From positions 26,575 to 90,574 of the IMG/VR virus record IMGVR_UViG_3300010885_061525: DNA of 64,000 nucleotides; one strand, written 5' to 3'. Source of the DNA: a virus. Positions 3,586 through 64,000 of the stretch are shown in pieces. The notes beneath the pieces were generated by a model, which worked only from the letters and a program-made list of their open reading frames with translations, did not search any database and was not told the DNA's origin. The stretch's first letter is position 1, and every line of letters starts with the position of its first letter. The position numbers were made by a program, and so were the translations under genes.

Positions 3586-3590
3586 TATAA

Positions 3591-7184: not shown

Positions 7185-7221
7185 TTAGCGTTCCTTTACG
7201 CCATCTCTGATAGTACCATTA

Positions 7222-7861: not shown

Positions 7862-7876
7862 TTTACAAATCCACAA

Positions 7877-7886
7877 GTGTATACAC
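7877..7886. promoter_or_regulatory. Palindromic GTGTATACAC: back-to-back GTGTAT elements for divergent genes
   Basis: Lies in the 29-nt gap between ATG 7861 (-) and ATG 7891 (+). Confidence 0.65.
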
Positions 7887-7890
7887 ATAT

Positions 7891-8502: not shown

Positions 8503-8510
8503 AATAACCC

Positions 8511-9167: not shown

Positions 9168-9241
9168 AACCAATCCCCAATGCTTGAATGATTTATTAGA
9201 CGAGTTTGGATTAACAATGAATTATGAAGCTGGAAAAATAA

Positions 9242-9781: not shown

Positions 9782-9805
9782 AATATTTTTTAAGAAACAC
9801 AAAAT

Positions 9806-11326: not shown

Positions 11327-11367
11327 AACCAAACGGGCGAAAGACTATAATTAATCACGAGATAAAC

Positions 11368-11787: not shown

Positions 11788-11981
11788 TGTCTAATAAATA
11801 CTTAACAGAATTTCTCTCATTCTTAGATAAGGAGGGGCTTTTAAAAAGGCCCCTCTCTTTTAATGAGATAATCGATAAATTTCAAAACAAAGCTACTGCT
11901 AGCACAAACATAAAGGCGCCAACAGGATATGCAGGATTCACAACAGGAAAATCGGAAAAAAAGAGTACTTCTGGTAACTGA
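11787..11981 (+). CDS. Small hypothetical protein
   Basis: TAATG-coupled to ssb; contains an internal hairpin (11832-11855), so uncertain. Confidence 0.4.
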   Translation: MSNKYLTEFLSFLDKEGLLKRPLSFNEIIDKFQNKATASTNIKAPTGYAGFTTGKSEKKSTSGN

Positions 11982-13611
11982 ATTTAGTCAATTAAATACC
12001 GGGTTCTCAGTAATGGCTAATGATATTCTCATCGCCATGCATAATAGCGGTAAGTACGAAGTAGCGGAATTGGCTTCCTACTTAGAGGACGGTTCCCCAA
12101 GGATCAATTCTGTTCCTTGGAAGGTCTATCCTGTAATACCGTCAGACCCAAAAGAGAATCAAGAATACCAGCAAAACTATAGAACATCTCAATTTGGAAG
12201 TCACAGATTTGATAAGGCTGTTATAGATTTCAAACCTGATGTCGTATTTTCATACCGAGATTTTTGGCATGATGAATGGATAACAAAATCGGCATCAAGA
12301 TATCTTTTTAATTACGTCTGGTCTGCTTGTATAGATTCTGAACCTCCAAAAGTTGATTGGATGGGAATATATTCAACAGTAGATAGAATGACCTCATACA
12401 CAGATTGGGGAATGTCCGTTCTAAAGAAATACTCTGGACGGCAGCTCAAAATGGCCGACACCAACACTATGCCAGGTGTAGATCAAAATGTCTTCAAGCC
12501 AATTAAAAAGAGTGATGCTAGACATTCATTAGGAATCAAAGATGACATCAATGTAGTATTAACAGTGATGAGAAATCAACCAAGAAAGCTTTTTCCTGAT
12601 CTTATGTTTGCGTTTTCTAAAACATTAGAAACGTGGAACGACCTTGGTCGAACTGATCTAGTAGATAATACATATCTGTACTTACATACCAGTTATCCAG
12701 ATGTTGGTTTTGATATTGGAAAAGACATATTAAAGTATAAGCTGTCTTCAAAGGTTTTGATGACGTATTGTTGTAATCATTGCCATGCGTATTTTGCCTC
12801 GTTTTTCAACGGGGAAATTTGCGCATGCAATAATTGCGGAAACTTCACCGCCCATCCCCCAAACACAGCCATGGGTCTTACAAGAGAGCAGTTGGCTGTA
12901 GTATATAATACCGCCGATCTTTACGCTCAACTAAGCATTGCCGGCGCTCTAGAGATTCCATTGATAGAAGCTAAGGCTTGCGGAATTCCTACAATAGCCA
13001 CCGACTACGCTGCTATGCATGAAATAAACTCTCTTGGAGGATCGTATGGAAGCATCAAAGTTTCAGCGTGGAGAGAGGAGTCAGATAAGGAGACAGGTCA
13101 AATCAGAGCAATGCCTGATCCAATTGACTGCTCTAAAAAGATCGCTGATTTCTTCATGGAGTCAAAATCCTTTAAAGAACAACTTTCAATTGATGCATTA
13201 AATACAGTCAAGCGACATCATTCTAACGAAGAGACGTATAATAAATGGGACAAAATATTCGATTCAATGCCCTTTCTACCTGATGATAGATGGTATAAAA
13301 AACCAAATGTGATCGATACGAGCAAGATAGACTTGAACATCGCTTATAATGATGAAGATTTTATCAATTATTTAGTTTTTAATTTTACCCCTCCAAAGGC
13401 TGCGCTAAGAGCTTTTGCTGCAAGAAAAGAGTTGTCTGCAGCCCTAAAGACTAAGATTAAAACGGAAAATAATGCAGCTAGAAAATTGAATAGGTCTGAT
13501 ATAGTAACAGCTGTAGTACAAACTGCTCATCAGTTTAATGCTTTTGAGCAATTCAGATACGGCGTGGTTAACAAGATTAAAAACAAAATTGATATGGTGG
13601 AGGTGGTATGA
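11929..13611 (+). CDS. GT4-family glycosyltransferase with inserted CxxC/CxxC zinc ribbon
   Basis: TGFSVMA, RNQPRK, GALEIPLIEAKACGIPTIATDY; insert YCCNHCH...CACNNCG. Confidence 0.85.
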   Translation: MQDSQQENRKKRVLLVTEFSQLNTGFSVMANDILIAMHNSGKYEVAELASYLEDGSPRINSVPWKVYPVIPSDPKENQEYQQNYRTSQFGSHRFDKAVIDFKPDVVFSYRDFWHDEWITKSASRYLFNYVWSACIDSEPPKVDWMGIYSTVDRMTSYTDWGMSVLKKYSGRQLKMADTNTMPGVDQNVFKPIKKSDARHSLGIKDDINVVLTVMRNQPRKLFPDLMFAFSKTLETWNDLGRTDLVDNTYLYLHTSYPDVGFDIGKDILKYKLSSKVLMTYCCNHCHAYFASFFNGEICACNNCGNFTAHPPNTAMGLTREQLAVVYNTADLYAQLSIAGALEIPLIEAKACGIPTIATDYAAMHEINSLGGSYGSIKVSAWREESDKETGQIRAMPDPIDCSKKIADFFMESKSFKEQLSIDALNTVKRHHSNEETYNKWDKIFDSMPFLPDDRWYKKPNVIDTSKIDLNIAYNDEDFINYLVFNFTPPKAALRAFAARKELSAALKTKIKTENNAARKLNRSDIVTAVVQTAHQFNAFEQFRYGVVNKIKNKIDMVEVV

Positions 13612-14708
13612 AAAAAATAGCTTATATATCAGTATATAGAGATGGAACTGGCTACGGAAATGCTGCAATATCGATGATCAAAGCTATCGATAAGGCCGGT
13701 ATAGATATTGTCCCAATTTGGCTAAGCCTGAACATGTTCCCATTAAAAAATACAGAGAGAATTTCCGAGCTAGAGAAGGGGAGTTTGGATGGAGTGTCTA
13801 CGGTAATCCAACAATCTCTTCCTGACACGTTTGTTAGGATAGAAGGGGTAAAGAATATAGGATATTTCTTTTGGGAAACTGATAGCTTCGTAGGATCTGG
13901 TTGGAAAAGCGGGTGTGAGTTAATGGATGAGATTTGGGTTACTACTGAAGAGCAGAAGGAGGCATGCGTTGCCTCTGGAGTCGATCCATTAAAAATACGC
14001 ATTGTAGATCAACCTAAAGAGCTAACGAAATCAGAACACAAGTTTGACTTCAAAAAGTATGGATTAGAAAATACTTTCAAATTTTATACTATATCTGATT
14101 ATTCAAACAAGAAAAATATTAATGGGCTGATGCATAGTTTCCTAACCGAATTTTCGATATATGACAACGTCTCTTTAACAATTAAAGCTTATATAAGTTC
14201 AAGACCTCCAATTGAAAGTAAAAATCATATTAAATCAACTATTCAAGAACTTAAAAAACAGATAGGAAAGCCTGATCATGTATATCCAAAAATTGCTATC
14301 ATAACTGATATGCTGTCTGAAAATGATTTATCGGGATTGGAAAACTCTTGCGACTGCTTTGTTTCTTCATCTCGCGGTGAAGGGGAAGGTCTTCCTATGG
14401 TTCAATCAGCATTAAAGGGGAAGCCAGTAATAGCTTCATGCATATCTGGAATTTCCAAAAATTTTAAAAACAAGGGACTGTTAATCAAAAACCTAATTAA
14501 AAAGAAGGTTTTCGGAATGAATAGCGGAGCATACTACAACTACAACGAAAATTGGCTAGACCCATCTACTACAGATATAGCTGATAAAATGCGCTATGTC
14601 CTAGAAAATCCAAACGAAGTACAAGAGATAGTCAAAGAGAATAAAGAGTATATAGAAGAGAACTTCTCAATAGAAGCCTGCGCAAAGAAACTGGCGGAAA
14701 TACTATGA
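13608..14708 (+). CDS. GT4-family glycosyltransferase
   Basis: TGYGNAA, FWET, KKNI, DCFVSSSRGEGEGLPMVQSALKGKPVIA. Confidence 0.85.
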   Translation: MKKIAYISVYRDGTGYGNAAISMIKAIDKAGIDIVPIWLSLNMFPLKNTERISELEKGSLDGVSTVIQQSLPDTFVRIEGVKNIGYFFWETDSFVGSGWKSGCELMDEIWVTTEEQKEACVASGVDPLKIRIVDQPKELTKSEHKFDFKKYGLENTFKFYTISDYSNKKNINGLMHSFLTEFSIYDNVSLTIKAYISSRPPIESKNHIKSTIQELKKQIGKPDHVYPKIAIITDMLSENDLSGLENSCDCFVSSSRGEGEGLPMVQSALKGKPVIASCISGISKNFKNKGLLIKNLIKKKVFGMNSGAYYNYNENWLDPSTTDIADKMRYVLENPNEVQEIVKENKEYIEENFSIEACAKKLAEIL

Positions 14709-15724
14709 ATCCTATTAGTTATATAAGCAATAAAATAAACAGAGTTAAAAAAGATAAATATAAAATCTTGACTTTTTCTACGCATGAAGCGTATCAAGAG
14801 GCCATGGCTAAAACCGGGCATCATTTCTACCTTCTTCAGACTGAAGGCTGCAAACAATGGAATGAGGATTTTAGAAAACTCCCAAGTAATTGCACTATTA
14901 TTAATAATATAGAACATATACCGTATGATATAGATTTTCTACTATCACAAGAGAGATACTCACAGCTGCAGAAAATGAGCGGATTATCTAATCATATTAG
15001 ACTTCCATTGATACATTTAGACCATGTCGAACCCGTAAAAAACGAATCGTTTCCCGCGCTAAAAGCACTCAAAGCTGACTTCAACGTCTTTATAACAGAG
15101 CATAATAAGGAAAGCTGGGAAAATACTGATGGAGTTGTTATATCTCATGGTATTAATACTGATACATTTTCGGGTTGGATTCCTAATACGTCTAAAACAG
15201 TTGTCTATATAGTCAATTACCTCAAAGAGAGAGATTTTTTCTGCGGATGGAAGGAGTGGGAATACATTAAAAATAAAGTAAACGCAATAGATCCTACGAT
15301 AAAGTTTAAGTTGATAGGAGACAATCCTGGAATAAGTAAGACTATATCTGATCCAAAAGAGCTTGCTCTTGAATTAAAAAAATGCGCCTGTTATATCAAC
15401 ACGTCTAAATTCTCCCCTGTTCCAATGTCTCTTCTTGAAGCTATGTCGTGCGGTATGCCGATAGTATCTACTAAACATCAACAAGTGGCTAAGCTTTTAA
15501 ATGAGTCGAATTCAATATCATCTAATGATTTAGATCAATTAGCAGATGGGATCGTTAATGTATGCAATAACAACAAACTTTATAAGAGCATTGGTGTTAA
15601 TGCTAGAAATGAAATATTGAACAAGTTTTCAATGGAATCGTTTATGAATAACTGGAACGACATTTTCGATAAAGCCTATAATAAAAGACTTGGTGAATTA
15701 AATGAAATATTTTATAACAAATAA
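14705..15724 (+). CDS. GT4-family glycosyltransferase
   Basis: HGINTDTF, YINTSKFSPVPMSLLEAMSCGMPIVS, FSMESFMNNW. Confidence 0.85.
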   Translation: MNPISYISNKINRVKKDKYKILTFSTHEAYQEAMAKTGHHFYLLQTEGCKQWNEDFRKLPSNCTIINNIEHIPYDIDFLLSQERYSQLQKMSGLSNHIRLPLIHLDHVEPVKNESFPALKALKADFNVFITEHNKESWENTDGVVISHGINTDTFSGWIPNTSKTVVYIVNYLKERDFFCGWKEWEYIKNKVNAIDPTIKFKLIGDNPGISKTISDPKELALELKKCACYINTSKFSPVPMSLLEAMSCGMPIVSTKHQQVAKLLNESNSISSNDLDQLADGIVNVCNNNKLYKSIGVNARNEILNKFSMESFMNNWNDIFDKAYNKRLGELNEIFYNK

Positions 15725-16112
15725 AGAAGAAACGTATTTAGATTTTATAAAGATCACATCTGATGATTTTAAAAGTCTAAAGGAAAAAACTATTGAAGAA
15801 ATTTTTGTGGCTAGCGGGACTTTTGAATCTATCAAAGATCCAAGCTCACTAATTGAAGATATCAAAAAGGCAACAGATAATAAGTGTAAAATTGCATTAA
15901 ATTTTATAAATATATATCAATTGTTTGTAGATGTAGCTTTTCATAGAACTGACATTGGTATTGGTCATTTAGTTTGCAGAAGCATGGAGAATCCATTTAA
16001 TGTGAATGCTGCATCTTCCTTTGTTAAAAAGTCGGGGCTAAAAATAATTAGAACCAACCTAGAGGAAAATTCAAAATTTATCAGAATTGAGTGTGTTAAT
16101 GAGTGGGAATAA
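15702..16112 (+). CDS. Hypothetical protein (possibly degenerate methyltransferase fold)
   Basis: Overlap-coupled ORF within the glycosyltransferase cluster. Confidence 0.5.
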   Translation: MKYFITNKEETYLDFIKITSDDFKSLKEKTIEEIFVASGTFESIKDPSSLIEDIKKATDNKCKIALNFINIYQLFVDVAFHRTDIGIGHLVCRSMENPFNVNAASSFVKKSGLKIIRTNLEENSKFIRIECVNEWE

Positions 16113-28537: not shown

Positions 28538-31500
28538 TTACAATCCTGGAAGAGGTATATTGCTAGCCTGGAATACCTCTCTGAGTTTTCCAATAACATT
28601 ATCAAAAACCTTATCTCCAACGGTTCTCATTGACTCCTCTACCTTAGTAAGATCAAACGTAACGCTTATATCTTTGACTCCGCTTATTACTACATTTATC
28701 TGTTTTGGTATAGCGCTAATAGCAGCTGTTAGACTGCTTACTTGATCATTCATTATGCTTAAGTTTGCAGAAGTGGATTTGTCCATTTGCATTCTAGCCG
28801 ATTGTATTTCCGTAGCTATTTTTTGAGCGTCTTGTATGAGCTTGTTTGCTTGATCTACAGTTGATTTTATGTCTGTTGTTTTAACATCAATTCCTAAGGC
28901 TTGGAATTCTGGTCTGCTGGCTAAGGCCGCCTGTATAGCCGCAGCCAATTGCTCTCCACTTAAACCTGATTGTGTTAGCGTGTTAGCACCGATCTGTCTT
29001 GAAAAATCCATCAACTCAGTTAGTTGCTTTGTGCTTAGACCTGCAATTTGATTTTCTACAAGTCTAGCAACATTTTGGTTTGTTAGAATTGTATTTACGC
29101 CTTGATCCTTGGCGTTTGGAATGGCTCTTGTTATTGCCGCAGCTATATCATTGGCATTTCCTGCGGCTCTTGAAAGAGTCATTTTATTCATTGAATTATC
29201 AGCAGGAGTTCCTCCATATAACTTTCCAATAAGTGATTCTAACGTCGCCTTTTGTTCTGACAGCTTCTTGGATGTTATGTCTACTTGACTTCCGACTAAT
29301 TTAAACTGAGACTCCAACACCTCTAATGAATTTATTAAACCTCTCTCAATCGAGCTTCTTAAATTCATTAAACGGCCGCTAAGCTCGAATACGTTATCGC
29401 TTATATTAAAACTAGAATCTAAAGCAGCAAGTTGGCTCATTAGATCCTTTATGTATGGAAGCTCAAGAATGTTACTAGGAGCATTATTTGGCATTGATGG
29501 ATCTGCTGTCAGCGCCCTTTGAGCTTCTATACTTGTTTGTAATTGTTTGATAATAGAAAGCTCGGAACCTGCCTTACTAGGATCCCTAGTTGATATTGCT
29601 GCTGTTAACTCTGAGAGCGGATTAGCGGTCGTTGACTCAGGCGCTCTTGGCAGCTCAACTGCTCGCGCTGCTGTCGGAGGGACTTTTGGAAGTTTCTCGT
29701 CTGCTAATAGTTTACCTTGTGCGGCGAGATTAGTATTATCACTTTCTTTAATTGCATCAGAGACATTCGGACCAAGGGAGTTATGGCCTCTACTTTTATC
29801 TTTTCTGCTCTGCTGTATCACCTTCTGCATTATTACTCTTGCTTTATCTAACCGAGACTCTCTATCTTCCGACAACCCCCGCTGTTCTGCAGTATTAGGT
29901 AGCTGAGCTTGTAAACCATAAGGCAATCTCTCTTCTACAGCTGGAAATTTATATGTTTGGTTAGACCTGAGCACGTCCCCAGGTTGCTGTGCCGCAGTAC
30001 TAGGTTCCTGAATTGATAAATCATCAGATTGACCTCTAGTTTTTGCGTCTTTCACTTCCAATATCACTCGGTCCATTTTCGCTCTTGCGTCATCTAACCG
30101 AGACTCTCTATCTTTCGACAACCCCCGCTGTTCTGCAGTATTAGGTAGCTGAAGTTCTAAATTAGGACTTAGTTTGGCGTCTAATTTTAATCTCCTATAA
30201 GTCTTAGGTGGATCATCAGATTTACCTCTATTTTTATCGTTTGATGGTGATCGTTTGTCGTTAGTAGTAGTTGCATTTGAACTATTTACTACAGCTGACC
30301 CACTTTCAGTTTCTATATTTGTTTGTAATAGTCCAGCGGCAGTGGTCTTATTACCTATTATATTAGAGTTTGGTATATTTTGACGCTGGCTTAAGGCCTG
30401 TGTCTGAATATCTAAGGAAGCTTGAGCCGCCCCTCTTTGAGTTTTTAGACCAAGGGCGCCTTGAAAACCCTCTATAGTTGAGCGGTTGTCTGCAATAGCT
30501 TTGGCTAATTCAACTTGAGATTTATATGACTCTTGTTCAGCCGCAGCCCTTGCTTCTATTGTTTTTGCCTGTAATTCATATGCGTTATTTGCTAATGTTA
30601 TTAAGGCGTTTGCTTGAGCGATTTGGGCGGAACCAGCTTCGTCAACTCCTAAAAGTTTACTAGAATTAAACCCTCCGGTATTTTTATCTTGCAATGCCTT
30701 TCCTAATGCCTCTAGACTAAATGGTAACTTTCCTTGTGATCCTGATTTTTGAATAATATCAAATAATTTTTGTCCTGCGCTACCCAATCCCTTCAGATCG
30801 CCGAGCCTATCGTCTATGACTGCTCTCACGTCTTTTGCTGACTGAAATGTAGTTCCACTCGTAACCGATCCGCTTTTTGCTGCGGCCGCATCTTCTTCTT
30901 GAGTGGCCCTAGCTTGAAGCCCTCCAATCGCTTTTAAGCTTTCCGGCTCTAAATTAAGAAGTAAATTATTTTGAACATTCTTATCCGCTTGGCTGAATTG
31001 AATAAAAACTTCGTTGAGTGTGTTTTTTAATGACTGTATTTCAGGACTGTTTACTCTTTGAGCTTTTTGTCCAGTGATTGCTTCGATAGCGTTAGAAGCT
31101 GCTGCTACATTTCTATCGGTAGGATCTGTATTTATCTGCTGAATTGATCCAACCTTGAATGGAGAAGACAATATACCTTTAGTTGTTTCTAATTGAGTTG
31201 ATAGTCTTTGAGTTTCTGAAACAAGAACGCCTATTAAGGATGTTTGGCTTTTTATTGATGATGAAAGAGCGTTACTGAATACGTTTAATGAACGCTCCGC
31301 AGCATCTGATATTTCCGCTAATGATTTAAATGTAAACTTAAATCTAGTTATAGACGCAGTAAATACATCAGCCCCTTCTTCTACTGCTGTAAACTCGTCA
31401 CGTAAAGACTTGAATATTTTTTCCTCATCAAATTTAACTCCCTCAACAGTAAGTTTTTCGGCTAAAACTTTAGCGGTTTTCTCAGCAGCAGCTGTTCTTG

Positions 31501-34500
31501 TCTCAACATTATCTTGGCTCTCAGGTATCGATCTAGCATTTCTTTGGAAATTAGAAATGATTGTGTTTCTTACGAACTCAGCCGTTGCGGCAAGCCCTTT
31601 TTCCGCTTCAGCTATTTTTTCTTCATCGCCGCCAAAGGCTTGCTTGAGTGACTCTCTTATTTCCCCTTTATTTGTTTCGCTTGCTGACTTTCCAGCCCCT
31701 CCCGATATTAAAAAGTCTTGTATGCCACCAGTAGTTGTCGCTGCTCCTGTGCCAACTTTATATTGCTGACCCTTTTTCAAAAACCCATTCTTTAACGCTT
31801 GCTTTTGTATCTCTTGCACTTTTGCTATAGCTTTAAGATAATCCTCAGTGTCTTTATTTGCTGAAGGTAGGTCAAAATCCGTCTTTAATTCGCCAGAAGC
31901 TATCACTTTTTCAGCGGCGTTAAATCTGGATCCTCGATTAGATTGATCTCTAATTTTTCCCAACTCTTTTTCTTGAGCGTTTGATTCTGTAAGAGCGCCA
32001 TATGCAGATATTCCAGCAGAAGCAATAGCTGTTCCAGCAATAATGTATGGATTTCCGGTTAATAACGAAGCGGTGAGTCCTCCTAGAGCGCCACCTTGGA
32101 CTGAAGATGATGCAATATTTTGATTAGCATCACTCATATCCGTCATAGGAAGAATAGTATTTACTATGGCTGGAGCCGCTGTAGCCGCAGCTAGTCCATA
32201 CAAAGGATTTATTCCACCCGAAAGTCTTCCAATTAAGTTTCTACCGCCACCTCTTGCTGCTCCAGCAGCAGCACCAGCAACTCCTGCAGGTATTCCTCCT
32301 CCCGCGCCTCCTGGTCTTATTGCCGCCGCCATTCCTATAGCCTGCCCTCCAGCCCCTGGAGGTCTAATTGTTTCTATAGCGGTTCTTAATCTATCGAGAG
32401 ACTGAGTATTTAATCTAACACTGTTTTGCCCCGCAACATAGGCTCTTATAGATCCTCTTAAAACTGCTACTATTCCTACTGTTATAGCGCCTTGCGCTAA
32501 AGGATTCAATACATCCGCCCCTTTTACTGGGCCAATTCTTGCCTCTGGAACTGCTGACAGTATCGAACCCAATCCTACAGGAATTCTTAGTATGGCTTTA
32601 GTTCCGGGGTTATTATAAATTCCTTCTATGAATCTAAGGTAACTAGCTCTTATCTTATCAATAGCTGGGCCTATATCATCTAAGCGTCTTCTGGCGTCGT
32701 TCACTATGGAATCGGACGCCCCCGCGCTTAATTCTAGAATTCTAGTTTCAACTTCTTTTAATCCGTCTAAAAGAGACGCAAGCCTTCCTACAGACCTTAC
32801 ATCAACGATTGACGCTAGCGATTGCGTTGCACCTTGACTCTTGCTAATTTTTTGGTATTCCGTAGCTAAAGATATAAGTCTTTCGTATGGATCAGATATA
32901 TTATCAACGTCAACTCCCAACTTTCTCATAGCCGCTTCGGCTCTAGGAGTGTTAATTCTAACAGAAAGGCTTTTCAAAAACGTTCCGATTGCAGGAGCGG
33001 CCTCTCTAGTCTTTTCTCTTAACACAGTAACTAACTTTATATAGTCTTCAAAGTTTCCTCCTACAGCAGCAAACGATCCTCCTCCTCGTTTAATAGCTTC
33101 GAATAAATCTTGTGCTTCAACAGCATATGCCTTTGAATACTCATTGACCAACCCTAATATGTACGGGGTTTCTGACAATGATCTATTAAACTGATTTACT
33201 GTAGCAATCAATCCGTCAATTACTTCCGCCGAGCTTCCGAAGCTGGGACCAAGAGTAGCAAAAGATACCGCTCTAATAGTCTCATCAAATCCCGGCTTTC
33301 CTCTACTAAATCCTGCCGCAGCAAGAGTCTTGGCTGATACAGCTAAAGATTTAGCAGTCTCCCCTGTAATCTCTGAAAGATCTAGAACTTGCTTCTTAGT
33401 TTTAGCTGCTGCTAATGACGCCTCATCAAATGATTCTGCTAATGAACCAGTGTTATTAAATCCTGAGTCAAAAATCTGCTCTATACTAGTAATTTCTTTT
33501 TCTAACAAGGCTGTTTCTACAATCGCTGCTCTTGAAGCTGATATTAATCCGTATAAACCAATCGCTCCAAAAGCGTAAGAAGCTAGTTTTTGCGTGGCCA
33601 GTCCCACTCTTGCTCCTACGCGATCAAAAGCAGACTCCCCATACTTCGCTATAATTTCAAATCCAGATTTAGATCCTTGTGAAACGGCAGCTAGGTCATC
33701 ATTGAATTGTCTCAGGCCTGCGCTCTGTTCACTCATTCTTTGCTGAGATCCGGTTCTTATTACCGACAATCTTTGACTTGGAATCTGTGTTAAATCTCTT
33801 CCCGCATCATCCCCCAATACCTGTCTTGTCGCCTGCGCTCTTAGTCTTTGTTGGTCTATTTGAATTGGTTTTAGAGGATCTCCGTTAGCATCAGAACCCC
33901 CTCTTCTAGAGAAATTGTTTACCGCCCGAGCCTGCTTTTCGAGAGCTAAAGTAGTTTGATCTATGAGTTTATTTATTGCCGCTATTTCTGCGACTTGGCG
34001 TCGTCTTTCTGTAGCTTCTTCTATTAATCTCTGACGATTTCTAGCGTTAGTAGCGGCTACACGTCTTTCGTTCTCGGCCTCAAGCGCTCCTTGCGCTTTA
34101 ATAGCCTCATTCTGAGCATTTGTCGCTACGACAATTTTGTTTCTAGTAGCTACATTCTCAGCAGCATCAGAAGAAGAAAGTGTTTGTCTGGCCGATGCTA
34201 ACGTTTTCACCTCTGGCCCAGAATCAGATTTTCTAACATTACTGCTTACAATTTTAGCTTCTATGTCTGCGTTAGAAGGAGCCGCGCCTCCTGTAAATGC
34301 AGCTTTTCTTCTTTCTAATTCTATTTGTTTTTCTATTAATCTACTTAGGCGTCCAATATTCTTTTCCGTTGCAACTTCTATATTAGCCCTAGCTGATATG
34401 ATTTGCAACTCCTGCTGTCTTTGATCCGATACAGGCTTGGTGGCGGAGGCCAATCTATCTCTTACCGCTCTTCTGTCAGGGTTCGCTAAATCCTCTTCGG

Positions 34501-37495
34501 TAATACCCAATCTTCTCAGAGCAAGCTCTCTTGGATTTCCTGCGGGAGCCACTTGAGTAACAGGACCTAAGCCTGACGGCGTAGAAGGAGCAGCTTCGCC
34601 CGTTTGCTTATTGAATACAACACCTTGTGTCGCTAACTTATCTTGTATTCTCAATCTTAGCTTAGCCTCATCTCTCATCACCTTTTCAATAGTTTGCTCA
34701 ATGAAAAGATTGTCTTTCCTGAGAGCGTTCAACGCCCTATTTTGTTCGGTGAGAGCTTTTATGTCTTCTTTTTGAAGTTTAATTGATGCATTTATTGATC
34801 TTAGCGCTTTTTCTGTCTCTGCTAATTTGGAGGTGTCAAGAACTGAAGATTCATTTACTTTAGTAGGGTCAGTTGCACTCATGCCAAAAGCGGCAGATCT
34901 AACTGCGTTCTTATTGCTTTCCAATAATGTTCGCGCGCCAGTTTCTCTCAGAGCTGATGTAGTAGCGGCAGGATCAATATTTGCTCGTAACACTCCAGCC
35001 TTAGCTGATAATCTATCCGAATCTTCTAATCTTTGCTTAACAACCCTTGCTCTTTCTAATTGATTTAATCTACCAAGAGTGCCAACTAACTCCTCGCTTC
35101 GTTGTGAAGCTATATTGGGCCTCGCCTCTTTTAGCCTTGTTAGAAGCTCCGGAGTTGGATTTTGCATTTGCTCCGGAGTCACATTCAATCTTTGAATAGC
35201 CTTTTCTCTTGCGTCTGAGAACTCGGGCTTTATTCCAACATTACTAAGAGATTTTCCAATTCTATTCTGAAGATTCTTTTCTTCTTGGACCGTTCTCTCT
35301 ACTATTGCTAAAACTTGCCTTCTTAGTTGAACGTCCGCAGATAGATTCCCCGTCATTTTTAAAGCAGCTTCAGCCTGCCGTTTCTCAAGATCAATGCCAT
35401 TAGCCTTTGCTTTGTTTATTGCGTTCTCAAGTTTTAATATTCTATCGTCGTATTCTTGAACTTTACCCGCTTGTTGATTTCTATCCGAAATGGCGGTTCT
35501 AAAATTTTTCCTACTCATCTCTACGCCGCCGCTTTCAAATGATTCTTTTTCAAGTTCCTTTCTTTTCCCAGTCGCCTCCGTCGCAATTTTCTGCGCGGAA
35601 TCTCTCTTTGCACGAATTTCAGTTAACTGCTTTTCAGCGTTCGTTATTCTGTTTATTCCTGCAACTTTATCAGCATCTGATCTCTTTTCATTTTCCGCCC
35701 TCTGTAACTCTATAGCCCGTATATTCTCTTGTGCGTTTTGTTCTTTGATAAGATTGGTTACAACTGATTTAGCCTGAGATTCTGCCTTTTTGGCTAAAGA
35801 TAACTTTTCATCAATACTTGCCATTTGAAGAAGTTTCAATCTCGCCGCAGAATTTGATTTATTCGTAGTTGCTTCTTGCACGTTTGCTGCTGCAGTAGTC
35901 CCCGCCTTCCCTCCTCCTTTACTAGCGTCCTCAAGGGCAGTTACTTTAGTCTGAGCCGCTTCCCGATTCTTATCGGCAGCTTCCCAAGCTTTATTCTTAG
36001 CTTCAGCAGCTTTTGTTGACGCCGCTATCACCGCATTATGCGCCGCCTCTGCTTTAGCAACCGCATCTACTTGAGACTTAATCTCCTTCCAAGTGTTAGC
36101 TTGAGCTTGATCAAGAGTTAATAACTTAGAGGCTTCTAGAATCGAATTCTTTCTGATCTGAAGCGTCCTTTCAGCTGAAGAGACGACAAGTTCACTTTTT
36201 GCAATGTCTGCTCGAATAGGAACAAGATCTGCTCCTTTTTTGACTTCGTCGAAAGCTCTATTGGCCGCAGATTTTTTGTCGGAGAAAGATTTAAGACTCG
36301 CGTCTCTGGCCTTAATATCTGTTTTTCCAGGGTTCGCTTTACCATAATCTGAAGCGGCTTTGTCATAAGCCTTTTGCGCAGCATCCGATGCTTTTCTTAA
36401 ACTACCTAATTGATCATTTCTAACCGTTTCGGCACTGCTCAACTTTCCTTGCAGTGTAGTCAATTCCAGTTTAGCGTATGTCAGACTCCTTGACTCGTCT
36501 TTAAGCTGCTTTTTAGCGTCTCGTGTTTTTAGCGCATCCTCTTGTTTTTTACTAAACGCTTCCTCGGCTGCACGATTTTTTTGCTTGATAGCAACGTCAA
36601 GCGCGCTTCCTGTAGCACTAGGAGTTATCCCATTTTTTAAGTTGTCTTTGACGAGTTTGGCTTCTTCCGCAGCCCGCTTTGCTCGCATAGTTTCTATCTT
36701 TTTGGAGGTTAAGTCGTCCTGAGCTATAGCTATAGCTTTATCAGTCGGCTTCGCAGCGTTCTGAGCTTTTTGCGCTTGCTCTAATAATAAACCCTTACTC
36801 TTTAAATCTTCTTCAGCGCCTTTAATGATCCCAGGTCTATCTGCAGCAGTAGTTTTTGAAACATTAGAAGCGTTTATAAAAGCCTGCTTAGCCTTGTCTC
36901 TGGCACTAGTAAGCGGATTTAGCCGTTCCGCAGCCGCGCTTCTATCGGCCTTTACTTGAGCAAGATGTTCAGCTAACTTGGCAGCACGAGTTGAAGCTCC
37001 TATTATTTTACTGTCAAATTTTCTAACAGGCTCTAATTCTGGAGCCACTTGTATTTTTACAACTTTACTGGCGGATTTCTGTACAGTCTCAACGGCATTT
37101 TTAATAAGAGCGAGTTTTCCAAGTTCCTGCTCCGCGTTTGGGACAAACGTTGAGTTGTTACGGATAGCCGCCATGACCGTCTTGATACTGGTCAGAAGTG
37201 GTGGTATTAATGCTAATTTTCCAGCGGCATTGGTAAGCTCATTAGTGTTCAACACTATTGACGGAGCTATTTTTGCTTTGCCTATAGTATTTTGAAGATC
37301 GGTTACAAGACTATTTGCCGCACTTGTTACCTGTCCTATTTTGCCTATGTCAAAATCAACCGCAACCTTTTTTCTGATTGTGCTACTGCCTACACTTTTG
37401 GATATTCCAGCCAACGCATCTGTAACGTTTGAGGATATGTTAACCCTACTAACGTCTATCTGAGCCGCAAAATTAAGAAGAAAGTTGTCAGCCAA
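28538..37495 (-). CDS. Tape measure protein
   Basis: 2985 aa, Ala/Lys/Glu/Gln-rich helical; TMP core (SAKTLAAAGF...VNEYSKAYAVEAQDLFEAIKRGG...TREAAPAIGTFLKSL); Gly-rich TM segments. Confidence 0.9.
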   Translation of the reverse strand: MADNFLLNFAAQIDVSRVNISSNVTDALAGISKSVGSSTIRKKVAVDFDIGKIGQVTSAANSLVTDLQNTIGKAKIAPSIVLNTNELTNAAGKLALIPPLLTSIKTVMAAIRNNSTFVPNAEQELGKLALIKNAVETVQKSASKVVKIQVAPELEPVRKFDSKIIGASTRAAKLAEHLAQVKADRSAAAERLNPLTSARDKAKQAFINASNVSKTTAADRPGIIKGAEEDLKSKGLLLEQAQKAQNAAKPTDKAIAIAQDDLTSKKIETMRAKRAAEEAKLVKDNLKNGITPSATGSALDVAIKQKNRAAEEAFSKKQEDALKTRDAKKQLKDESRSLTYAKLELTTLQGKLSSAETVRNDQLGSLRKASDAAQKAYDKAASDYGKANPGKTDIKARDASLKSFSDKKSAANRAFDEVKKGADLVPIRADIAKSELVVSSAERTLQIRKNSILEASKLLTLDQAQANTWKEIKSQVDAVAKAEAAHNAVIAASTKAAEAKNKAWEAADKNREAAQTKVTALEDASKGGGKAGTTAAANVQEATTNKSNSAARLKLLQMASIDEKLSLAKKAESQAKSVVTNLIKEQNAQENIRAIELQRAENEKRSDADKVAGINRITNAEKQLTEIRAKRDSAQKIATEATGKRKELEKESFESGGVEMSRKNFRTAISDRNQQAGKVQEYDDRILKLENAINKAKANGIDLEKRQAEAALKMTGNLSADVQLRRQVLAIVERTVQEEKNLQNRIGKSLSNVGIKPEFSDAREKAIQRLNVTPEQMQNPTPELLTRLKEARPNIASQRSEELVGTLGRLNQLERARVVKQRLEDSDRLSAKAGVLRANIDPAATTSALRETGARTLLESNKNAVRSAAFGMSATDPTKVNESSVLDTSKLAETEKALRSINASIKLQKEDIKALTEQNRALNALRKDNLFIEQTIEKVMRDEAKLRLRIQDKLATQGVVFNKQTGEAAPSTPSGLGPVTQVAPAGNPRELALRRLGITEEDLANPDRRAVRDRLASATKPVSDQRQQELQIISARANIEVATEKNIGRLSRLIEKQIELERRKAAFTGGAAPSNADIEAKIVSSNVRKSDSGPEVKTLASARQTLSSSDAAENVATRNKIVVATNAQNEAIKAQGALEAENERRVAATNARNRQRLIEEATERRRQVAEIAAINKLIDQTTLALEKQARAVNNFSRRGGSDANGDPLKPIQIDQQRLRAQATRQVLGDDAGRDLTQIPSQRLSVIRTGSQQRMSEQSAGLRQFNDDLAAVSQGSKSGFEIIAKYGESAFDRVGARVGLATQKLASYAFGAIGLYGLISASRAAIVETALLEKEITSIEQIFDSGFNNTGSLAESFDEASLAAAKTKKQVLDLSEITGETAKSLAVSAKTLAAAGFSRGKPGFDETIRAVSFATLGPSFGSSAEVIDGLIATVNQFNRSLSETPYILGLVNEYSKAYAVEAQDLFEAIKRGGGSFAAVGGNFEDYIKLVTVLREKTREAAPAIGTFLKSLSVRINTPRAEAAMRKLGVDVDNISDPYERLISLATEYQKISKSQGATQSLASIVDVRSVGRLASLLDGLKEVETRILELSAGASDSIVNDARRRLDDIGPAIDKIRASYLRFIEGIYNNPGTKAILRIPVGLGSILSAVPEARIGPVKGADVLNPLAQGAITVGIVAVLRGSIRAYVAGQNSVRLNTQSLDRLRTAIETIRPPGAGGQAIGMAAAIRPGGAGGGIPAGVAGAAAGAARGGGRNLIGRLSGGINPLYGLAAATAAPAIVNTILPMTDMSDANQNIASSSVQGGALGGLTASLLTGNPYIIAGTAIASAGISAYGALTESNAQEKELGKIRDQSNRGSRFNAAEKVIASGELKTDFDLPSANKDTEDYLKAIAKVQEIQKQALKNGFLKKGQQYKVGTGAATTTGGIQDFLISGGAGKSASETNKGEIRESLKQAFGGDEEKIAEAEKGLAATAEFVRNTIISNFQRNARSIPESQDNVETRTAAAEKTAKVLAEKLTVEGVKFDEEKIFKSLRDEFTAVEEGADVFTASITRFKFTFKSLAEISDAAERSLNVFSNALSSSIKSQTSLIGVLVSETQRLSTQLETTKGILSSPFKVGSIQQINTDPTDRNVAAASNAIEAITGQKAQRVNSPEIQSLKNTLNEVFIQFSQADKNVQNNLLLNLEPESLKAIGGLQARATQEEDAAAAKSGSVTSGTTFQSAKDVRAVIDDRLGDLKGLGSAGQKLFDIIQKSGSQGKLPFSLEALGKALQDKNTGGFNSSKLLGVDEAGSAQIAQANALITLANNAYELQAKTIEARAAAEQESYKSQVELAKAIADNRSTIEGFQGALGLKTQRGAAQASLDIQTQALSQRQNIPNSNIIGNKTTAAGLLQTNIETESGSAVVNSSNATTTNDKRSPSNDKNRGKSDDPPKTYRRLKLDAKLSPNLELQLPNTAEQRGLSKDRESRLDDARAKMDRVILEVKDAKTRGQSDDLSIQEPSTAAQQPGDVLRSNQTYKFPAVEERLPYGLQAQLPNTAEQRGLSEDRESRLDKARVIMQKVIQQSRKDKSRGHNSLGPNVSDAIKESDNTNLAAQGKLLADEKLPKVPPTAARAVELPRAPESTTANPLSELTAAISTRDPSKAGSELSIIKQLQTSIEAQRALTADPSMPNNAPSNILELPYIKDLMSQLAALDSSFNISDNVFELSGRLMNLRSSIERGLINSLEVLESQFKLVGSQVDITSKKLSEQKATLESLIGKLYGGTPADNSMNKMTLSRAAGNANDIAAAITRAIPNAKDQGVNTILTNQNVARLVENQIAGLSTKQLTELMDFSRQIGANTLTQSGLSGEQLAAAIQAALASRPEFQALGIDVKTTDIKSTVDQANKLIQDAQKIATEIQSARMQMDKSTSANLSIMNDQVSSLTAAISAIPKQINVVISGVKDISVTFDLTKVEESMRTVGDKVFDNVIGKLREVFQASNIPLPGL
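29846..30152. repeat. 61-bp direct repeat inside tape measure (29846-29906 and 30092-30152)
   Basis: Encodes QLPNTAEQRGLS[K/E]DRESRLD twice, one mismatch, 246-bp period. Confidence 0.9.
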
Positions 37496-59628: not shown

Positions 59629-60414
59629 TCACACAGATCCGGCAGGCTCAATAGCATCCATAGTGCAAGCAATGATTTCTTCCCATATTTTACGAAAAAG
59701 CTTTTCGTTGGGAGGGCCGTCTAGTTTTTCAAATATCGTGCCTTTCAGATCATCTTGATAACCCATACCTCTAGAAAGTTTTCCAAGATTATCAAGAATA
59801 TTCCCAAGCCCATGAATATTATCCCACAGACACCCCCGGCATTTCCCTACTTCCGGGGTGTTGTCAAATTGATCAAAGAGTCCCCACAAAACAGGAAATG
59901 GCTTGGATCGGTCTGGCGCTTTAAAAGATGGATTCATCGGGTCTGTTCTTGTATCGAAGTTCTTGATGCTATCTCTATACTGATTCATTAATTTAGGATT
60001 TGGAGTCAAACATCCACTCTTTATTCCGTTTGTAACGTACGAGCAAATGCCTTCTAAAACCCCTTGAACAAAAGGTCCGTCGTGTCTGAAATATTCAAGT
60101 GTCATTTCCTCTTTCCCAAGGAATTCAACGATAGGACCCAATTCTCGGGATTCAACCAGAGTAATGCTAATGCAAGGAAAACCCTTGATGTCTTTTAAAA
60201 AATCTGTAGAATTACAATCAGCATCGTGTTCAAATGGAGGTCTCATCACTCTTAAATATTCAGAAAAAGGCTGGCAAGTCGTATCATCAGTAACGACAAC
60301 GTCGTTCACATCAGTTATATCAACCCCTGCAGGCTTAACCGGAAGTTTATCGATCTGGTTTAACGTTACACCCAAGGCAAACGCCAGTCGATCCAATATT
60401 GTTTTTTTATTCAT
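59629..60414 (-). CDS. Cys-containing orphan, leader-family paralog B2
   Basis: Start MNKKTILDRLAFALGV at 60414, 20 nt after GTGTAT (60435-60440). Confidence 0.8.
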   Translation of the reverse strand: MNKKTILDRLAFALGVTLNQIDKLPVKPAGVDITDVNDVVVTDDTTCQPFSEYLRVMRPPFEHDADCNSTDFLKDIKGFPCISITLVESRELGPIVEFLGKEEMTLEYFRHDGPFVQGVLEGICSYVTNGIKSGCLTPNPKLMNQYRDSIKNFDTRTDPMNPSFKAPDRSKPFPVLWGLFDQFDNTPEVGKCRGCLWDNIHGLGNILDNLGKLSRGMGYQDDLKGTIFEKLDGPPNEKLFRKIWEEIIACTMDAIEPAGSV

Positions 60415-60472
60415 AAAACCCTTATTATAAATAAATACACGAATATGGATTTTATAGGGTGTATAAATTAGA

Positions 60473-60841
60473 ATGATCACATGGCTAGAATTACCATCGA
60501 ACCCTTCCTATGAAGTAAGCAATACAGGGCTTGTAAAGCAAAAGAACAGGATGATTTTTAATAGGGGGCGACTATACAATAAGGCGGGTGGAATGGTAAA
60601 GATACATCAAGATGAGGATGGGTACTGCTTTGTCGTTCTTGCTCATAGGGGGAAAAATGGGAAAAAGTTCGTTCATAGATTGGTGGCCGAAGTGTTTATA
60701 GGGCCGTGTCCAACGAATATGACTGTCGATCATATTAATAGAGTGAGGGATGATAATAAAATAGAGAATTTGAGATATGCCACCTCCTCGGAACAAAATA
60801 AGAATAGGGTGTTTAAAAAAAATGCAGCTAAAAATAATTGA
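60473..60841 (+). CDS. NUMOD4-HNH homing endonuclease
   Basis: YEVSNTGLVK (NUMOD4), VHRLVAEVFIG...VDHINRVRDDNKIENLR (HNH). Confidence 0.9.
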   Translation: MITWLELPSNPSYEVSNTGLVKQKNRMIFNRGRLYNKAGGMVKIHQDEDGYCFVVLAHRGKNGKKFVHRLVAEVFIGPCPTNMTVDHINRVRDDNKIENLRYATSSEQNKNRVFKKNAAKNN

Positions 60842-62216
60842 GGAGTTTAGAAATTTAATAAGTCCCCTTCCAAAGGAACAAAAGGAAGCTCTTAAACAAA
60901 ACATAAAAACCTATGGACTCAGGGATCCACTAATAGTTTGGCTGGAAGAAGATGTGCTTATCGATGGGCATAACCGATATGATATATGTGAAGAATTACA
61001 GATAGAGCCTAAGTACGTTTATTATAGTTTTAAAGATAAATATGACGTTCTGTCTTTTATAATTGAAAATCAGATAATAAGAAGAAATCTCCAGCCCTAC
61101 GAGAAAATAGAAATTTATGTAAAACTGAAAGCGGAGCTAAACAAGGAGGGGTCTTCTAAGAAGACTACGAAAAAAGATAAAAAACACAACACTTTACTTC
61201 TATTAGCAGAAAAAACAGGATATTCCCATGACACTTTACATAAAGCTTTTTATATAGATAAAAATGGAAGTCATGATTTAAAGCAGCAGTTAAGAAATGG
61301 AATTATAAGCATAAGTCAAGCTTATAATAAGCTAAAAAGTCTATCTGCAGGCGGGCTTAAAGACAAGTTTATTTTTCCGCCGTTTAGCATCTTGGACTCC
61401 TCTTCGATGGATTGGTTAATTAGAAAAAGAGAATGGTTTAATACTATAGGAGGAGCGACTGAGACTAGAGATGGCGCTTTTGGAAGGACTAGTGTAGGAG
61501 AAAATGAAGTGAAAATTTTATCTCAAATAAATGCCGGAACAAGTGTTTTCGATCCTGTTTTATGTGAAGTTCTTTTAAAATGGTTTTCTGTTAAAGACAG
61601 TATTATATTAGATCCTTTTGCGGGTAGTCATGTGCGAGGTGCTGTATGCGGGCTTTTAGGAAGGAATTACGTTGGGGTCGACATAAGGGAAGATCAAGTG
61701 AGTGTTAATAAAGCCATTATTGAGAAATTGGGCTTGTCTGAAAGGGTTGTTTATAATATTGGGGATTCTATTGAGATTGGTAGTGTGTTAAAGGGGGAGT
61801 CTTTTGATATGTGTTTGACATGTCCACCTTACTATAACTTGGAAGTCTATTCGAAAGAGGATTTGAGTTCCTTTGCGAGTTACGAAGAATTCATTTTAAA
61901 TTATTCTAAAATAATAAAAGAGTCTATTAGTTTATTAAAGAACGAGGCGTTTTTTATTGTGATAGTTGGTGATGTTAGAAATAAATATGGTGCTTATCAT
62001 GGATTTATATATGATAATATTAGGATATTTTTTGAGGCTGGATTGAAATTATATAATGAAATTATACTTAAGAATTCTATTGGAACAGCAGCGTTGCGCG
62101 CTAGCAATAGTATGAAAAATAAAAAAGTTACCAAAATACATCAAAATGTATTAGTGTTTTACAAAGGGGATGTTAAGAAAATAGGGGAAATTATTGATGA
62201 TTTATCAGATATATGA
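60822..62216 (+). CDS. ParB/Srx-domain + amino (N4C/N6A) DNA methyltransferase fusion
   Basis: GLRDPLIV...LIDGHNRY...N..RRNL (ParB); DPFAGS (motif I) and TCPPYY (motif IV). Confidence 0.88.
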   Translation: MQLKIIEEFRNLISPLPKEQKEALKQNIKTYGLRDPLIVWLEEDVLIDGHNRYDICEELQIEPKYVYYSFKDKYDVLSFIIENQIIRRNLQPYEKIEIYVKLKAELNKEGSSKKTTKKDKKHNTLLLLAEKTGYSHDTLHKAFYIDKNGSHDLKQQLRNGIISISQAYNKLKSLSAGGLKDKFIFPPFSILDSSSMDWLIRKREWFNTIGGATETRDGAFGRTSVGENEVKILSQINAGTSVFDPVLCEVLLKWFSVKDSIILDPFAGSHVRGAVCGLLGRNYVGVDIREDQVSVNKAIIEKLGLSERVVYNIGDSIEIGSVLKGESFDMCLTCPPYYNLEVYSKEDLSSFASYEEFILNYSKIIKESISLLKNEAFFIVIVGDVRNKYGAYHGFIYDNIRIFFEAGLKLYNEIILKNSIGTAALRASNSMKNKKVTKIHQNVLVFYKGDVKKIGEIIDDLSDI

Positions 62217-62448
62217 TAAGTGATATAATAGTCCTTATTTGGCTTACCAAGGCGCCCCGTTTTTGCGGGGTGTTTTTGTAAAAAGAAAGTGCTTATAACT
62301 GGTTTTTGCTTGTGAAAACGCGTGGACCACCGGCGCCGCCGGCGATCCTTCCGGTCCCTATTAGTAGAAGACGGACATTCTAACCAACGCGGTTCGGATC
62401 CGATCTTCGCATTCAAGTCAAGCGCCCTATCAGGGCGAGGAATCTCTC

Positions 62449-62910
62449 ATGCTCCCAGGTGCCACCACCATCGCTTCCGTGTCCGTGTCTCTCCGTCTCA
62501 TCCCTGCGATCGCTTCGACCGTCAAGACCGCGACTTGGAACGCCGTGACTGCGAAGAAGTCGCCCGAGAAGTTCGCCCGCGATCTCGAGGCTACGCTTCT
62601 CTCCCGCCGAGCCGATCGTGCGCTCCCCGAGCAGACCGCCTACGATCTGCGGAAGGCGCGCGCGCGCGCCATTCGCGGAGCGATCGGCTCCGCCGATCTG
62701 CTCGCGGCGAACGCGAAGCACTCCGCCGCCGAAGCCTTCATGGCGGACGCTACCGATCTGCTCGTCTCCCTCCCCAAGTCTGCGCACAATATGCCGATGC
62801 GCGCTGATGGTTACGGTGGAAATTGGACGATCAGCGACCTCGTTTCGTATTGGCTCACGAGCGAGTCCAAGTCGGACGCGTCTAAGCGCGCGGGATATAG
62901 CGGCGCGTGA
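62449..62910 (+). CDS. GC-rich hypothetical protein
   Basis: GAGGA SD 7 nt before ATG; strong GC3 bias in this frame; followed by hairpin. Confidence 0.65.
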   Translation: MLPGATTIASVSVSLRLIPAIASTVKTATWNAVTAKKSPEKFARDLEATLLSRRADRALPEQTAYDLRKARARAIRGAIGSADLLAANAKHSAAEAFMADATDLLVSLPKSAHNMPMRADGYGGNWTISDLVSYWLTSESKSDASKRAGYSGA

Positions 62911-62930
62911 ACGCGTTACGGTGAACGGAT

Positions 62931-62958
62931 ACCCTCCCCCCCCTAGGGGGGAGGGGTT
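62931..62958 (+). terminator. GC-rich hairpin after ORF 62449-62910
   Basis: CCCTCCCCCC..cta..GGGGGGAGGG inverted repeat; lacks a good U-tract. Confidence 0.5.
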
Positions 62959-62989
62959 CCCTTCCTCGTGAAGTGAGAACATATACTGT

Positions 62990-63853
62990 AAAGTAGTCGA
63001 GAGACCAGTTCGGTCTCGCAGAGACTCCCTACTCCGTGAAAGACCGGATGGCTGGGACCGATCACGAGCGAATGAGCGGCGTCGGCTAGGGAACCGCTTT
63101 CGGGTAATTACCCGATTCTCTTAAGGTGGCGCAAGCCTGCGGGAGTCTTTACTGAAATTCAATATGGTATGTCGCGTCGATCACGCAAGTGATTGCAGCA
63201 ACCCGTCCGAGGAATCGGATAACGCAAATGGGATGCTTATATACCATATGATGCGAGTGCGTGAAACGCTCGTGTCGGAGGCTTCCTCTAGTGGGGGCTG
63301 ATCCTTGAATGACCGCCTGGGCAAACCAGGCGAATAGATAGCAAACTAGATAGGTGCGAGTTGGAACCGCTCCCGGAAAGTCAACCTTACGGTAAGTACG
63401 AAAGTCCTTACGCAGGGGGGTATGAGCCGGGGTATAGCGAAGCCCGAGCAGCCTAGGTGTCGAACACGCCGAGAGTTAGTTACTCTCATAAACATGTGCG
63501 AATAGAGCCTAGGGTAAACTTAGTATTGACCGTGCGGACGAAAGTCCACATGGTAACGACATGCGATGCTACTAAGTTGAAACAGGGATGTGGCGCACGT
63601 ACCGGCGTAAATCAAGCGTGACTTGTGATGTGGACGAAAGTCCACAGGCTACAAGTTGTCGTGAGGTATGCGTCGATGGCGGCAATGCCTATTCCGTCTA
63701 CGGACAGAACTGCAAGTATGAATCCCAATCGCCTATGCGACAGCCATATCAAAGGCTGCGCACGGGTTGGACGGAGAGTAGACCCGCACTGAATAATACG
63801 CTACTGAGAGTGGGGTAAGTCGGTCGATTCTCTCAGTAGACGTGCGCATGCCC
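62990..63853 (+). ncRNA. Large highly structured ncRNA, GOLLD-like (family assignment tentative)
   Basis: No credible ORF; many nested helices (63022-29/63141-48, 63162-70/63241-49, 63517-25/63570-78, 63593-600/63840-47, 63801-10/63830-39) and GNRA-capped stems (GCAA x2, GGAA, GAAA x3) that read as GNRA on the + strand. Confidence 0.75.
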
Positions 63854-63889
63854 AGCGCCGTCTGACGTTACGATATACGTCACATTCAA

Positions 63890-63924
63890 GGGGGGCGGCG
63901 GATGATTCCGTCGCCCCCTCTTTA
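63890..63924 (+). terminator. Hairpin downstream of the large RNA
   Basis: GGGGGCGGCGGA-tgat-TCCGTCGCCCCC then TCTTT. Confidence 0.55.
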
Positions 63925-64000
63925 CGTCCCACATGACTGGAAGGTTGTGTGGGACTTTCAGTGTTGAGTTGGCTCTGTCATAGCCCTCTACGAGTGGGCG

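Follow-up and report, generated by a model that had tools for sequence, protein, structure and literature searches.

The window analysed here, a stretch of 64,000 nucleotides, comprises bases 26575-90574 of G000, a linear 90.6-kb (90,574-bp) IMG/VR virus contig that is ~58% complete and carries the large terminase gene of a tailed phage (TerL, 50683-52707), a split DnaE and many orphan genes. The two DnaE (DNA polymerase III alpha) ORFs are found on the forward strand ~7.3 kb apart (628-2496 and 9806-11326), one with PHP and NTPase domains and the other with finger, HhH and OB domains, and other genes, some of them on the opposite strand, are located between the two halves. A 2985-aa ORF on the reverse strand (28538-37495) gave zero sequence matches in Pfam, PHROG or PDB, and the idea that it might encode an N4-like virion RNA polymerase was thus unsupported. 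Inference of the host from TerL failed, the protein being only 24-28% identical to the terminases of Bacillus and Clostridium phages.

The RNA described in this work is encoded in the last kilobase of the window. At ~62300 the GC content leaps from ~0.35 to 0.60-0.67 and is then ~0.52 across the RNA stretch; the same AT-to-GC switch is present at the same position in two related contigs, G001 (IMGVR_UViG_3300033571_028777) and G002 (IMGVR_UViG_3300032282_003797). The step from AT-rich (0.35-0.45) to GC-rich DNA (0.6-0.7) was mapped to 62200-64000 in the window, ~4500-16000 in G002 (L103) and 1-9000 in G001 (L104). Since the switch recurs in two further contigs, it is a genuine property of these phage genomes, an assembly chimera can be discarded as its cause, and the GC-rich block is a compositionally distinct genome module. 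In G002 the block is ~11 kb long, contains small co-directional orphan ORFs and has AT-rich phage DNA on either side. The RNA is positioned at the head of this block, with ~11 kb of small ORFs downstream of it and co-directional with it in G001 and G002, and small orphan ORFs as its immediate flanks. Among the flanking genes examined there was no reverse transcriptase, Cas, TnpB(-like) or transposase gene. The 64-kb window, G001 and G002 are all free of tRNA genes, none lies within 60 kb of the RNA, and the sole tRNA-Arg of G000 lies ~87 kb away.

Several neighbouring genes were recorded in passing. An HNH_3/NUMOD4 homing-type endonuclease gene (60473-60841, forward strand) is located at the AT-rich edge in both lineages (also L003, 4371-4733); it overlaps the start of a gene for a 479-aa N6/N4 DNA methylase (60777-62216, forward strand), which is absent from G001. 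The small genes downstream in G002 include one encoding a Cas_VVA1548-family protein (PF09652, E = 1e-14; L103 13446-13829, reverse strand), followed by an SLT/destabilase-like lysozyme gene (L103 11774-12244). The end of the window (position 64000, where the 90.6-kb contig stops) and position 1 of a 2.3-kb metagenome contig (L098) are breaks no more than 3 nt apart, ~40 nt past the second of the two hairpins that follow the RNA, and the relatives run on through this point; the break shared by these two independent assemblies suggests that strains differ, or that a repeat lies, immediately after the RNA unit.

The coordinates of the features at the locus are collected in Table 1.

Table 1. Features of the RNA locus and RNA-library contigs placed on it, in window coordinates
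Feature	Position	Strand	Remarks
Putative sigma-70-like promoter	62202-62229	+	TTATCA-16-TATAAT with TG; from a consensus scan only; at the AT-rich/GC-rich boundary
Orphan ORF, 153 aa	62449-62910	+	Real coding gene; third-position bias 16/11/44
Conserved leader	62918-62972	+	GC hairpin 62933-62957 (CCCUCCCCCC...GGGGGGAGGG) and conserved GGGGTTCCCYTCCYCGTGAR tract
Whole RNA	62973-63853	+	~881 nt as seen in metatranscriptomes
Domain 1	62988-63152	+	Closed by GUAAAG/CUUUAC; 4 covarying pairs
Domain 2	63158-63309	+	Closed by UUCA/UGAA; 4 covarying pairs
Hairpin CGCCUGG-GCAAA-CCAGGCG	63311-63342	+	2 covarying pairs
Central junction AAACUAGAUAGGUGCGAGUUGGAACCGCU	63343-63371	+	100% identical in all lineages
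Domain 3	63361-63447	+	Long irregular stem capped by invariant GAAA hairpin (63392-63411); 4 covarying pairs
Domain 4	63448-63713	+	Closed by GCAG/CUGC; >15 covarying pairs
Domain 5	63716-63783	+	Least conserved (41% identity, 14-nt indel); structure poorly supported
3' hairpin ACGCUACUGAGAG/CUCUCAGUAGACGU	63798-63843	+	4 covarying pairs; conserved loop with invariant UGGGGUA
GC-rich hairpin, then CUCUUU	63892-63917	+	Terminator-like, short U tract; 2 double and 3 single covarying changes
Second hairpin, then UUUC	63926-63955	+	Terminator-like; 4 covarying pairs
X3 (lake metatranscriptome)	62973-63853		One 882-nt contig, 0 mismatches, depth 9.2
X4	within 63007-63783		Three contigs
X21	63153-63713		One contig
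X22	63359-63588		One contig

The 153-aa ORF that precedes the RNA ends with its own conserved stop codon and C-terminus. The encoded protein has homologs in 11 metagenome clusters (90% identity), only five at 50% identity among 1.84 billion proteins; it has no match in Pfam or PHROG, and its helical AF2 model (pLDDT 79) has no fold match in PDB. This gene is mosaic among the relatives, as the G002 ORF (L103 15546-16040, reverse strand) is homologous only in its N-terminal ~65 residues (46% identity), the conserved C-terminal part WT.SDL..YW..GESK.DA..RAGY having been replaced, with the recombination joint just before the RNA leader. As G002 has retained the RNA but not this C-terminal half, the 153-aa protein is probably not an obligate partner of the RNA. 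The leader is kept in all three lineages, and leader plus RNA are 91% identical between G001 and G002 despite the replaced half of the ORF. The unit that stays together starts at ~62918 and consists of the leader hairpin, the RNA and the two terminator-like hairpins.

The leader may be a promoter, a processing site or an upstream terminator; it lies outside the cover of the RNA-library contigs. The possibility that its hairpin and tract form a repeated phage promoter was rejected, the motif being unique in all three contigs. The only other site of the leader word GGAGGGGTTCC is outside the window at G000:C1:12190-12260 (L120 ~1480-1550), a match near G000:12220 that belongs to a coding Gly/Pro repeat: a tandem GGAGGGGTTCCTCCTCC repeat in a Gly/Pro-rich gene on the reverse strand, unrelated to the leader. 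The candidate promoter at 62202-62229 could possibly start a transcription unit comprising the small ORF and the RNA. The first-pass annotation had pointed to a TATACT box as the -10 element of the RNA, which did not hold up: the relatives read CATACAGC and CATAGCGC at this place, and the RNA contig begins 10 nt upstream, at 62973. With TATACT not conserved and a good candidate promoter at 62202-62229, the RNA may be processed from a longer transcript or be made from an unrecognised promoter in the leader. The strong hairpin noted behind the RNA proved to be two conserved and covarying GC hairpins (Table 1). Neither of them passes a strict terminator scan, and the first resembles, in a search of Rfam, only the generic terminator hairpin of CsrC.

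The first-pass annotation had claimed a giant structured non-coding RNA in this stretch, and strong covariation, the missing coding signal and a transcript of its own in metatranscriptomes all bear this out. No ORF of more than 76 aa is present on either strand of the stretch. When 62990-63853 is compared with G001, the substitutions are spread over the three codon positions as 81/79/92, with no codon phase, and the indels measure 1, 2, 4, 9, 14 and 26 nt; the upstream ORF by contrast shows the third-position bias listed in Table 1 and a single 3-nt indel. The minimum free energy of the forward strand is -332 kcal/mol, well below that of dinucleotide shuffles (z = -4.8 from 20 shuffles; z = -3.9 for the reverse strand), as the proposal of a folded RNA had demanded.

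Covariation was examined in an alignment of three sequences (window, G001 and G002), two of which are 91% alike. RNAalifold predicted 296 pairs, 63 of them with compensatory double changes. The consensus used for counting was ribosum-scored and contains 311 pairs in 42 helices; standard pairs were found in 94.9% of its 927 cells, compared with 36-40% when the partners were slid by 1-3 columns, and 64 pairs had changed on both sides, compared with 3-8 in the slid controls. Neither value was equalled in any of 500 shuffles. As a control for circularity, the window sequence was folded alone and its pairs were then examined in G001, where 30 of 43 double-changed pairs were canonical; shifted controls gave 5-13 double-changed pairs, ~30% of which stayed paired. 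Natural variants in the metatranscriptomes keep the pairing at 9 of 11 consensus-pair positions. In the GCAA hairpin at 63179-63194, for example, C63184U and G63189A change together (closing pair C-G to U-A) while the loop goes from GCAA to GCGA and is still of the GNRA type. Among the consensus cells, G·U pairs number 110 and A·C pairs 11; an excess of G·U this far above A·C means that the pairing works on the forward strand only, and the same strand is indicated by the GNRA loops and by the U-runs after the hairpins. Compensatory pairing, the missing coding signal and expression, the general marks of a structured ncRNA, are thus found together, and 62973-63853 is a real structured non-coding RNA, a conclusion that we hold with very high confidence.

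The consensus structure comprises some 40 helices, organised as five or six nested multi-branch domains, and several of its GNRA tetraloops are conserved. In the 5' 110 nt of domain 1 (62988-63097) identity reaches 92%, compared with ~70% for the lineages overall, and a 26-nt insertion peculiar to this phage follows (63098-63123). Domain 2 contains an AUAUGG/CCAUAU helix, GNRA hairpins and a hairpin loop with an invariant CUAGU (63288-63292). The central junction has its partners in two predicted long-range contacts: the predicted partner of GGUGCGAG (63353-63360) is CCGCACU (63784-63790), a pairing that would enclose the 3' domains (3-5) and that, both arms being invariant, is only inferred; and the ACUAG of the junction is complementary to the CUAGU loop of domain 2, a possible pseudoknot. 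Domain 4 has three arms (63452-63513, 63517-63579 and 63586-63695). Two single-stranded segments, 63343-63352 and 63811-63817, are strictly invariant.

All inverted repeats named in the first-pass annotation are present where it had placed them, and the pairs that they form fared unevenly in the relatives. The helices ATATGGTAT/ATACCATAT, AACTTAGTA/TACTAAGTT and CTACTGAGAG/CTCTCAGTAG are maintained by compensatory changes, with 2, 4 and 4 covarying pairs, respectively. For GCGCACGT/ACGTGCGC both arms are invariant and pairing is possible, RNAalifold favouring other partners. The proposed helix AGACTCCC/GGGAGTCT is contradicted by G002, in which the 5' arm reads GUGCGG, and a rival local helix changes consistently from UCCC/GGGA to UGCG/CGCA. 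The GNRA loops were confirmed in part: the GAAA loops at 63400 and 63636 are invariant and the GGAA at 63210 becomes GCAA or GCGA, both again GNRA, but the GCAA at 63185 is not of the GNRA type in G001 and G002, where the hairpin itself persists. The repeated 15-mer GGACGAAAGTCCACA does occur twice (63536 and 63632; 0 copies expected by chance). The AGUA word taken for a loop-E element is not conserved, the relatives having AAGA. Neither site suggested for multimerisation could be upheld, as the two CCTAGG words are pairing partners within the same molecule, in the first arm of domain 4 (CGCAGA/UCUGCG in the relatives) and the palindrome TCGGGTAATTACCCGA lies in the 26-nt insertion, which is missing from the relatives. 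The conserved CUAG in the loop at 63288-63291 may be considered as a self-assembly contact, only as a lead.

Transcription, the other point on which the proposal depended, was examined in public sequencing runs. The segment 62300-64000 was found in 24 runs of 22 studies, all from freshwater or lakes, six of them recorded as RNA. Contigs from four RNA runs of four studies (X3, X4, X21 and X22) were placed on the window; the X3 contig covers the RNA from end to end and those of the other three runs lie inside it (Table 1). No contig of these four RNA runs falls on 60402-62947. This span includes the 153-aa ORF, which the query contained, and the missing cover serves as a within-query contrast, not as proof of a silent ORF. 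The DNA runs X1 and X2 contain 87-88% of the words of the query. X3 has two further short contigs of low depth from a phage gene (60000-60315), evidence of phage activity in that sample. The RNA contigs are confined to the RNA span and none lies on the neighbouring ORF; the RNA therefore accumulates as a discrete species well above the neighbouring mRNA, with abundance read from assembled contigs. The contigs end at 63853, before the downstream hairpins, and none extends further or contains a joint or a circular junction. The RNA ends at 62973 and 63853 are read from assembled contigs and are hints only, and the strand is taken from the base pairing and not from these contigs.

G001 was reached through the 153-aa upstream ORF, and blastn shows 71% nucleotide identity with the window across 62251-63860, from the ORF through the entire gene-free stretch. 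G002 was reached through a conserved 20-mer and its element is complete. The 2.3-kb metagenome contig, reached by the same kind of scan, and the window share 99.4% identity. As G001 and G002 are 84-91% alike (91% in the RNA itself), the family effectively consists of two deep lineages and one shallow split, and with two of the three lineages so close, many helices rest on one event. The RNA has ~70% nucleotide identity where the neighbouring proteins have 22-48% amino-acid identity. Nothing else is as well conserved between these phages, which have otherwise diverged. Its conservation is uneven, from 92% in 62988-63097 and 100% in the central junction to 27-47% in peripheral arms, a pattern typical for a folded functional RNA.

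Scans of IMG/VR with five DNA motifs, the 153-aa protein, its alignment and the neighbouring SleB-like protein returned the same three contigs only, the remaining motif hits being judged chance by nhmmer. The single hit in the GTDB species set was a chance 21-mer in an Actinomycetota MAG, and blastn gave no match in INPHARED phages, PLSDB plasmids or E. coli genomes. The contigs that encode the at least 10 further homologs of the 153-aa protein probably contain more copies of the RNA beside them.

The first-pass annotation had called the RNA GOLLD-like or a new class; the comparisons favour the second option, and the first fails. At the gathering score none of the 4227 families of Rfam 15 matched the window or G001, and cmscan with lax filters (E<=10) found nothing inside the RNA in any of the three homologs (window 62800-64000, G001 and G002), which is consistent with a new class. 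Direct searches of the whole 90,574-bp contig gave no hit at E<=10 to GOLLD (RF02032) or ROOL (RF03087); the ROOL search matched none of its control genomes and carries less weight than the full cmscan. None of the homologs gave an Rfam match (E<=10) to group I and II introns, RNase P, tmRNA, OLE, HEARO or raiA. An exon context is missing, the upstream ORF is intact to its own stop and no joints occur in the RNA contigs; the partner genes OapA, IscB/IsrB and reverse transcriptase are absent beside the RNA. A weak match to a group II domain model (RF01998) was seen elsewhere, not in the RNA. A search of the published literature found no description of this RNA. Judged by these comparisons, the RNA very probably lies outside every Rfam 15 family. 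We consider it a genuine new family: the kind is known, namely large structured phage RNAs of unknown function, and the family, the architecture and the genomic setting are new.

We consider it rather probable that 62973-63853 on the forward strand specifies a stand-alone, stable RNA of ~880 nt that belongs to an uncatalogued family found in a small clade of uncultured freshwater phages. Such an RNA would be made as a stable stand-alone transcript and would act in trans during infection through its three-dimensional fold, which would probably rely on several conserved GNRA loops and the invariant junctions; it might be a scaffold or particle and in that form bind or sequester a macromolecule of the host or the phage. 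This trans-acting mode follows by analogy the proposals made for GOLLD and ROOL (PMC12286853), and we advance it tentatively, as the likeliest single mechanism, at odds somewhat below even. That the RNA is the most conserved element and stands at the head of an unusual GC-rich block in AT-rich genomes suggests that it is central to infection. A further-reaching proposal, that an undescribed giant RNA, the best-conserved element of these phages, serves as a self-assembled RNA-only particle or a new large ribozyme in early host takeover or counter-defence, is possible and in our judgement somewhat doubtful. Action as a guide, as an intron or in cis seems unlikely to us.

A large ribozyme or self-processing RNA, with the invariant junctions as catalytic core and the ends cleaved from a transcript that starts at 62202-62229, would be in keeping with the size and complexity, which are of the order seen in group I/II introns and RNase P, with the strictly invariant single-stranded segments (63343-63352, 63811-63817), with contig ends that match neither a recognisable promoter nor the terminator-like hairpins, and with the unconserved TATACT box. 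The contig ends are, however, weak evidence for the RNA ends, no ribozyme or intron model matches at E<=10, and neither exon context nor a joint or circular junction in the RNA contigs was found; we regard a ribozyme as unlikely. The position directly upstream of ~11 kb of co-directional small ORFs in G001 and G002, and the weak U tracts on both hairpins before the first ORF, would also suit a giant cis-acting leader that, like a riboswitch or an antitermination element, sets how much transcription continues past both hairpins to the small early-like genes. Against such control are the RNA contigs, which stop at 63853 ahead of the hairpins, and the conservation of the RNA, which exceeds that of the surrounding genes; moreover, a leader of ~880 nt and ~40 helices is far larger than any cis-regulator familiar to us, and we think this still less likely than the ribozyme.

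A very divergent GOLLD or ROOL missed by the covariance models was considered in view of the same size class, the phage origin, the derivation from lakes, the abundance in metatranscriptomes and the wealth of GNRA loops, as well as the variable 5' half of GOLLD (PMC12286853). RF02032, with its conserved 3' domain, and RF03087 nevertheless gave no hit at E<=10 in the 90.6-kb contig, lax cmscan was empty inside the RNA in three homologs and no tRNA lies within 60 kb, and membership in either family appears very improbable to us. The GC jump from ~0.35 to 0.65 at ~62300, together with a contig that ends 150 nt past the element where an independent contig ends as well, could raise the suspicion of an artefact, be it a chimeric assembly joined where the GC content switches, decayed coding sequence or a fold that arose by chance. 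The junction and the GC switch recur, however, in two further contigs, the G002 block is AT-flanked on both sides, and covariation, the missing codon phase and the RNA-library contigs contradict such an origin, which we can practically dismiss.

To our knowledge, only a handful of natural RNAs are as large and complex (rRNAs, group II introns, RNase P, GOLLD, ROOL, OLE and HEARO). Each such large RNA held unexpected biochemistry, the latest case being the RNA-only nanocages, and a further, unrelated ornate RNA of ~880 nt expressed in lakes would be a new object for RNA structural biology and phage biology. GOLLD, which was reportedly described by Weinberg et al. in 2009, is often found in phages and prophages beside tRNA genes or islands, and RF02032 models its conserved 3' domain. 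Like GOLLD, the present RNA is a phage-encoded (TerL context), ornate and covarying RNA of at least ~800 nt (800-900 nt in both); the two RNAs have dozens of helices arranged in nested multi-branch domains, carry GNRA loops, come from lake samples and are abundant as RNA. Unlike GOLLD, it matches no family model, has no adjoining tRNA genes or islands and heads a GC-rich block of small genes, and its most conserved parts are the 5' ~110 nt and the central junction whereas GOLLD has a universally conserved 3' half. The 5' half of GOLLD is variable, and GOLLD forms a 14-mer cage by cryo-EM (Kretsch et al. 2025, PMC12286853).

With ROOL the RNA shares the character of a large ornate RNA of phages and prophages; it differs in having no model match, ~300 nt of additional length and no tRNA islands, and in habitat, ROOL occurring in the rumen and in Lactobacillales and the present RNA in lakes. 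The phi29 pRNA (~174 nt) is a phage-encoded, separately transcribed RNA that acts via its fold and loop-loop contacts; the likeness to it is functional only, and at ~174 vs ~880 nt no homology is expected. In architecture, the RNA is of a complexity comparable to that of OLE, HEARO, raiA, group I/II introns, RNase P and tmRNA, with which it has conserved junctions and tetraloops in common.
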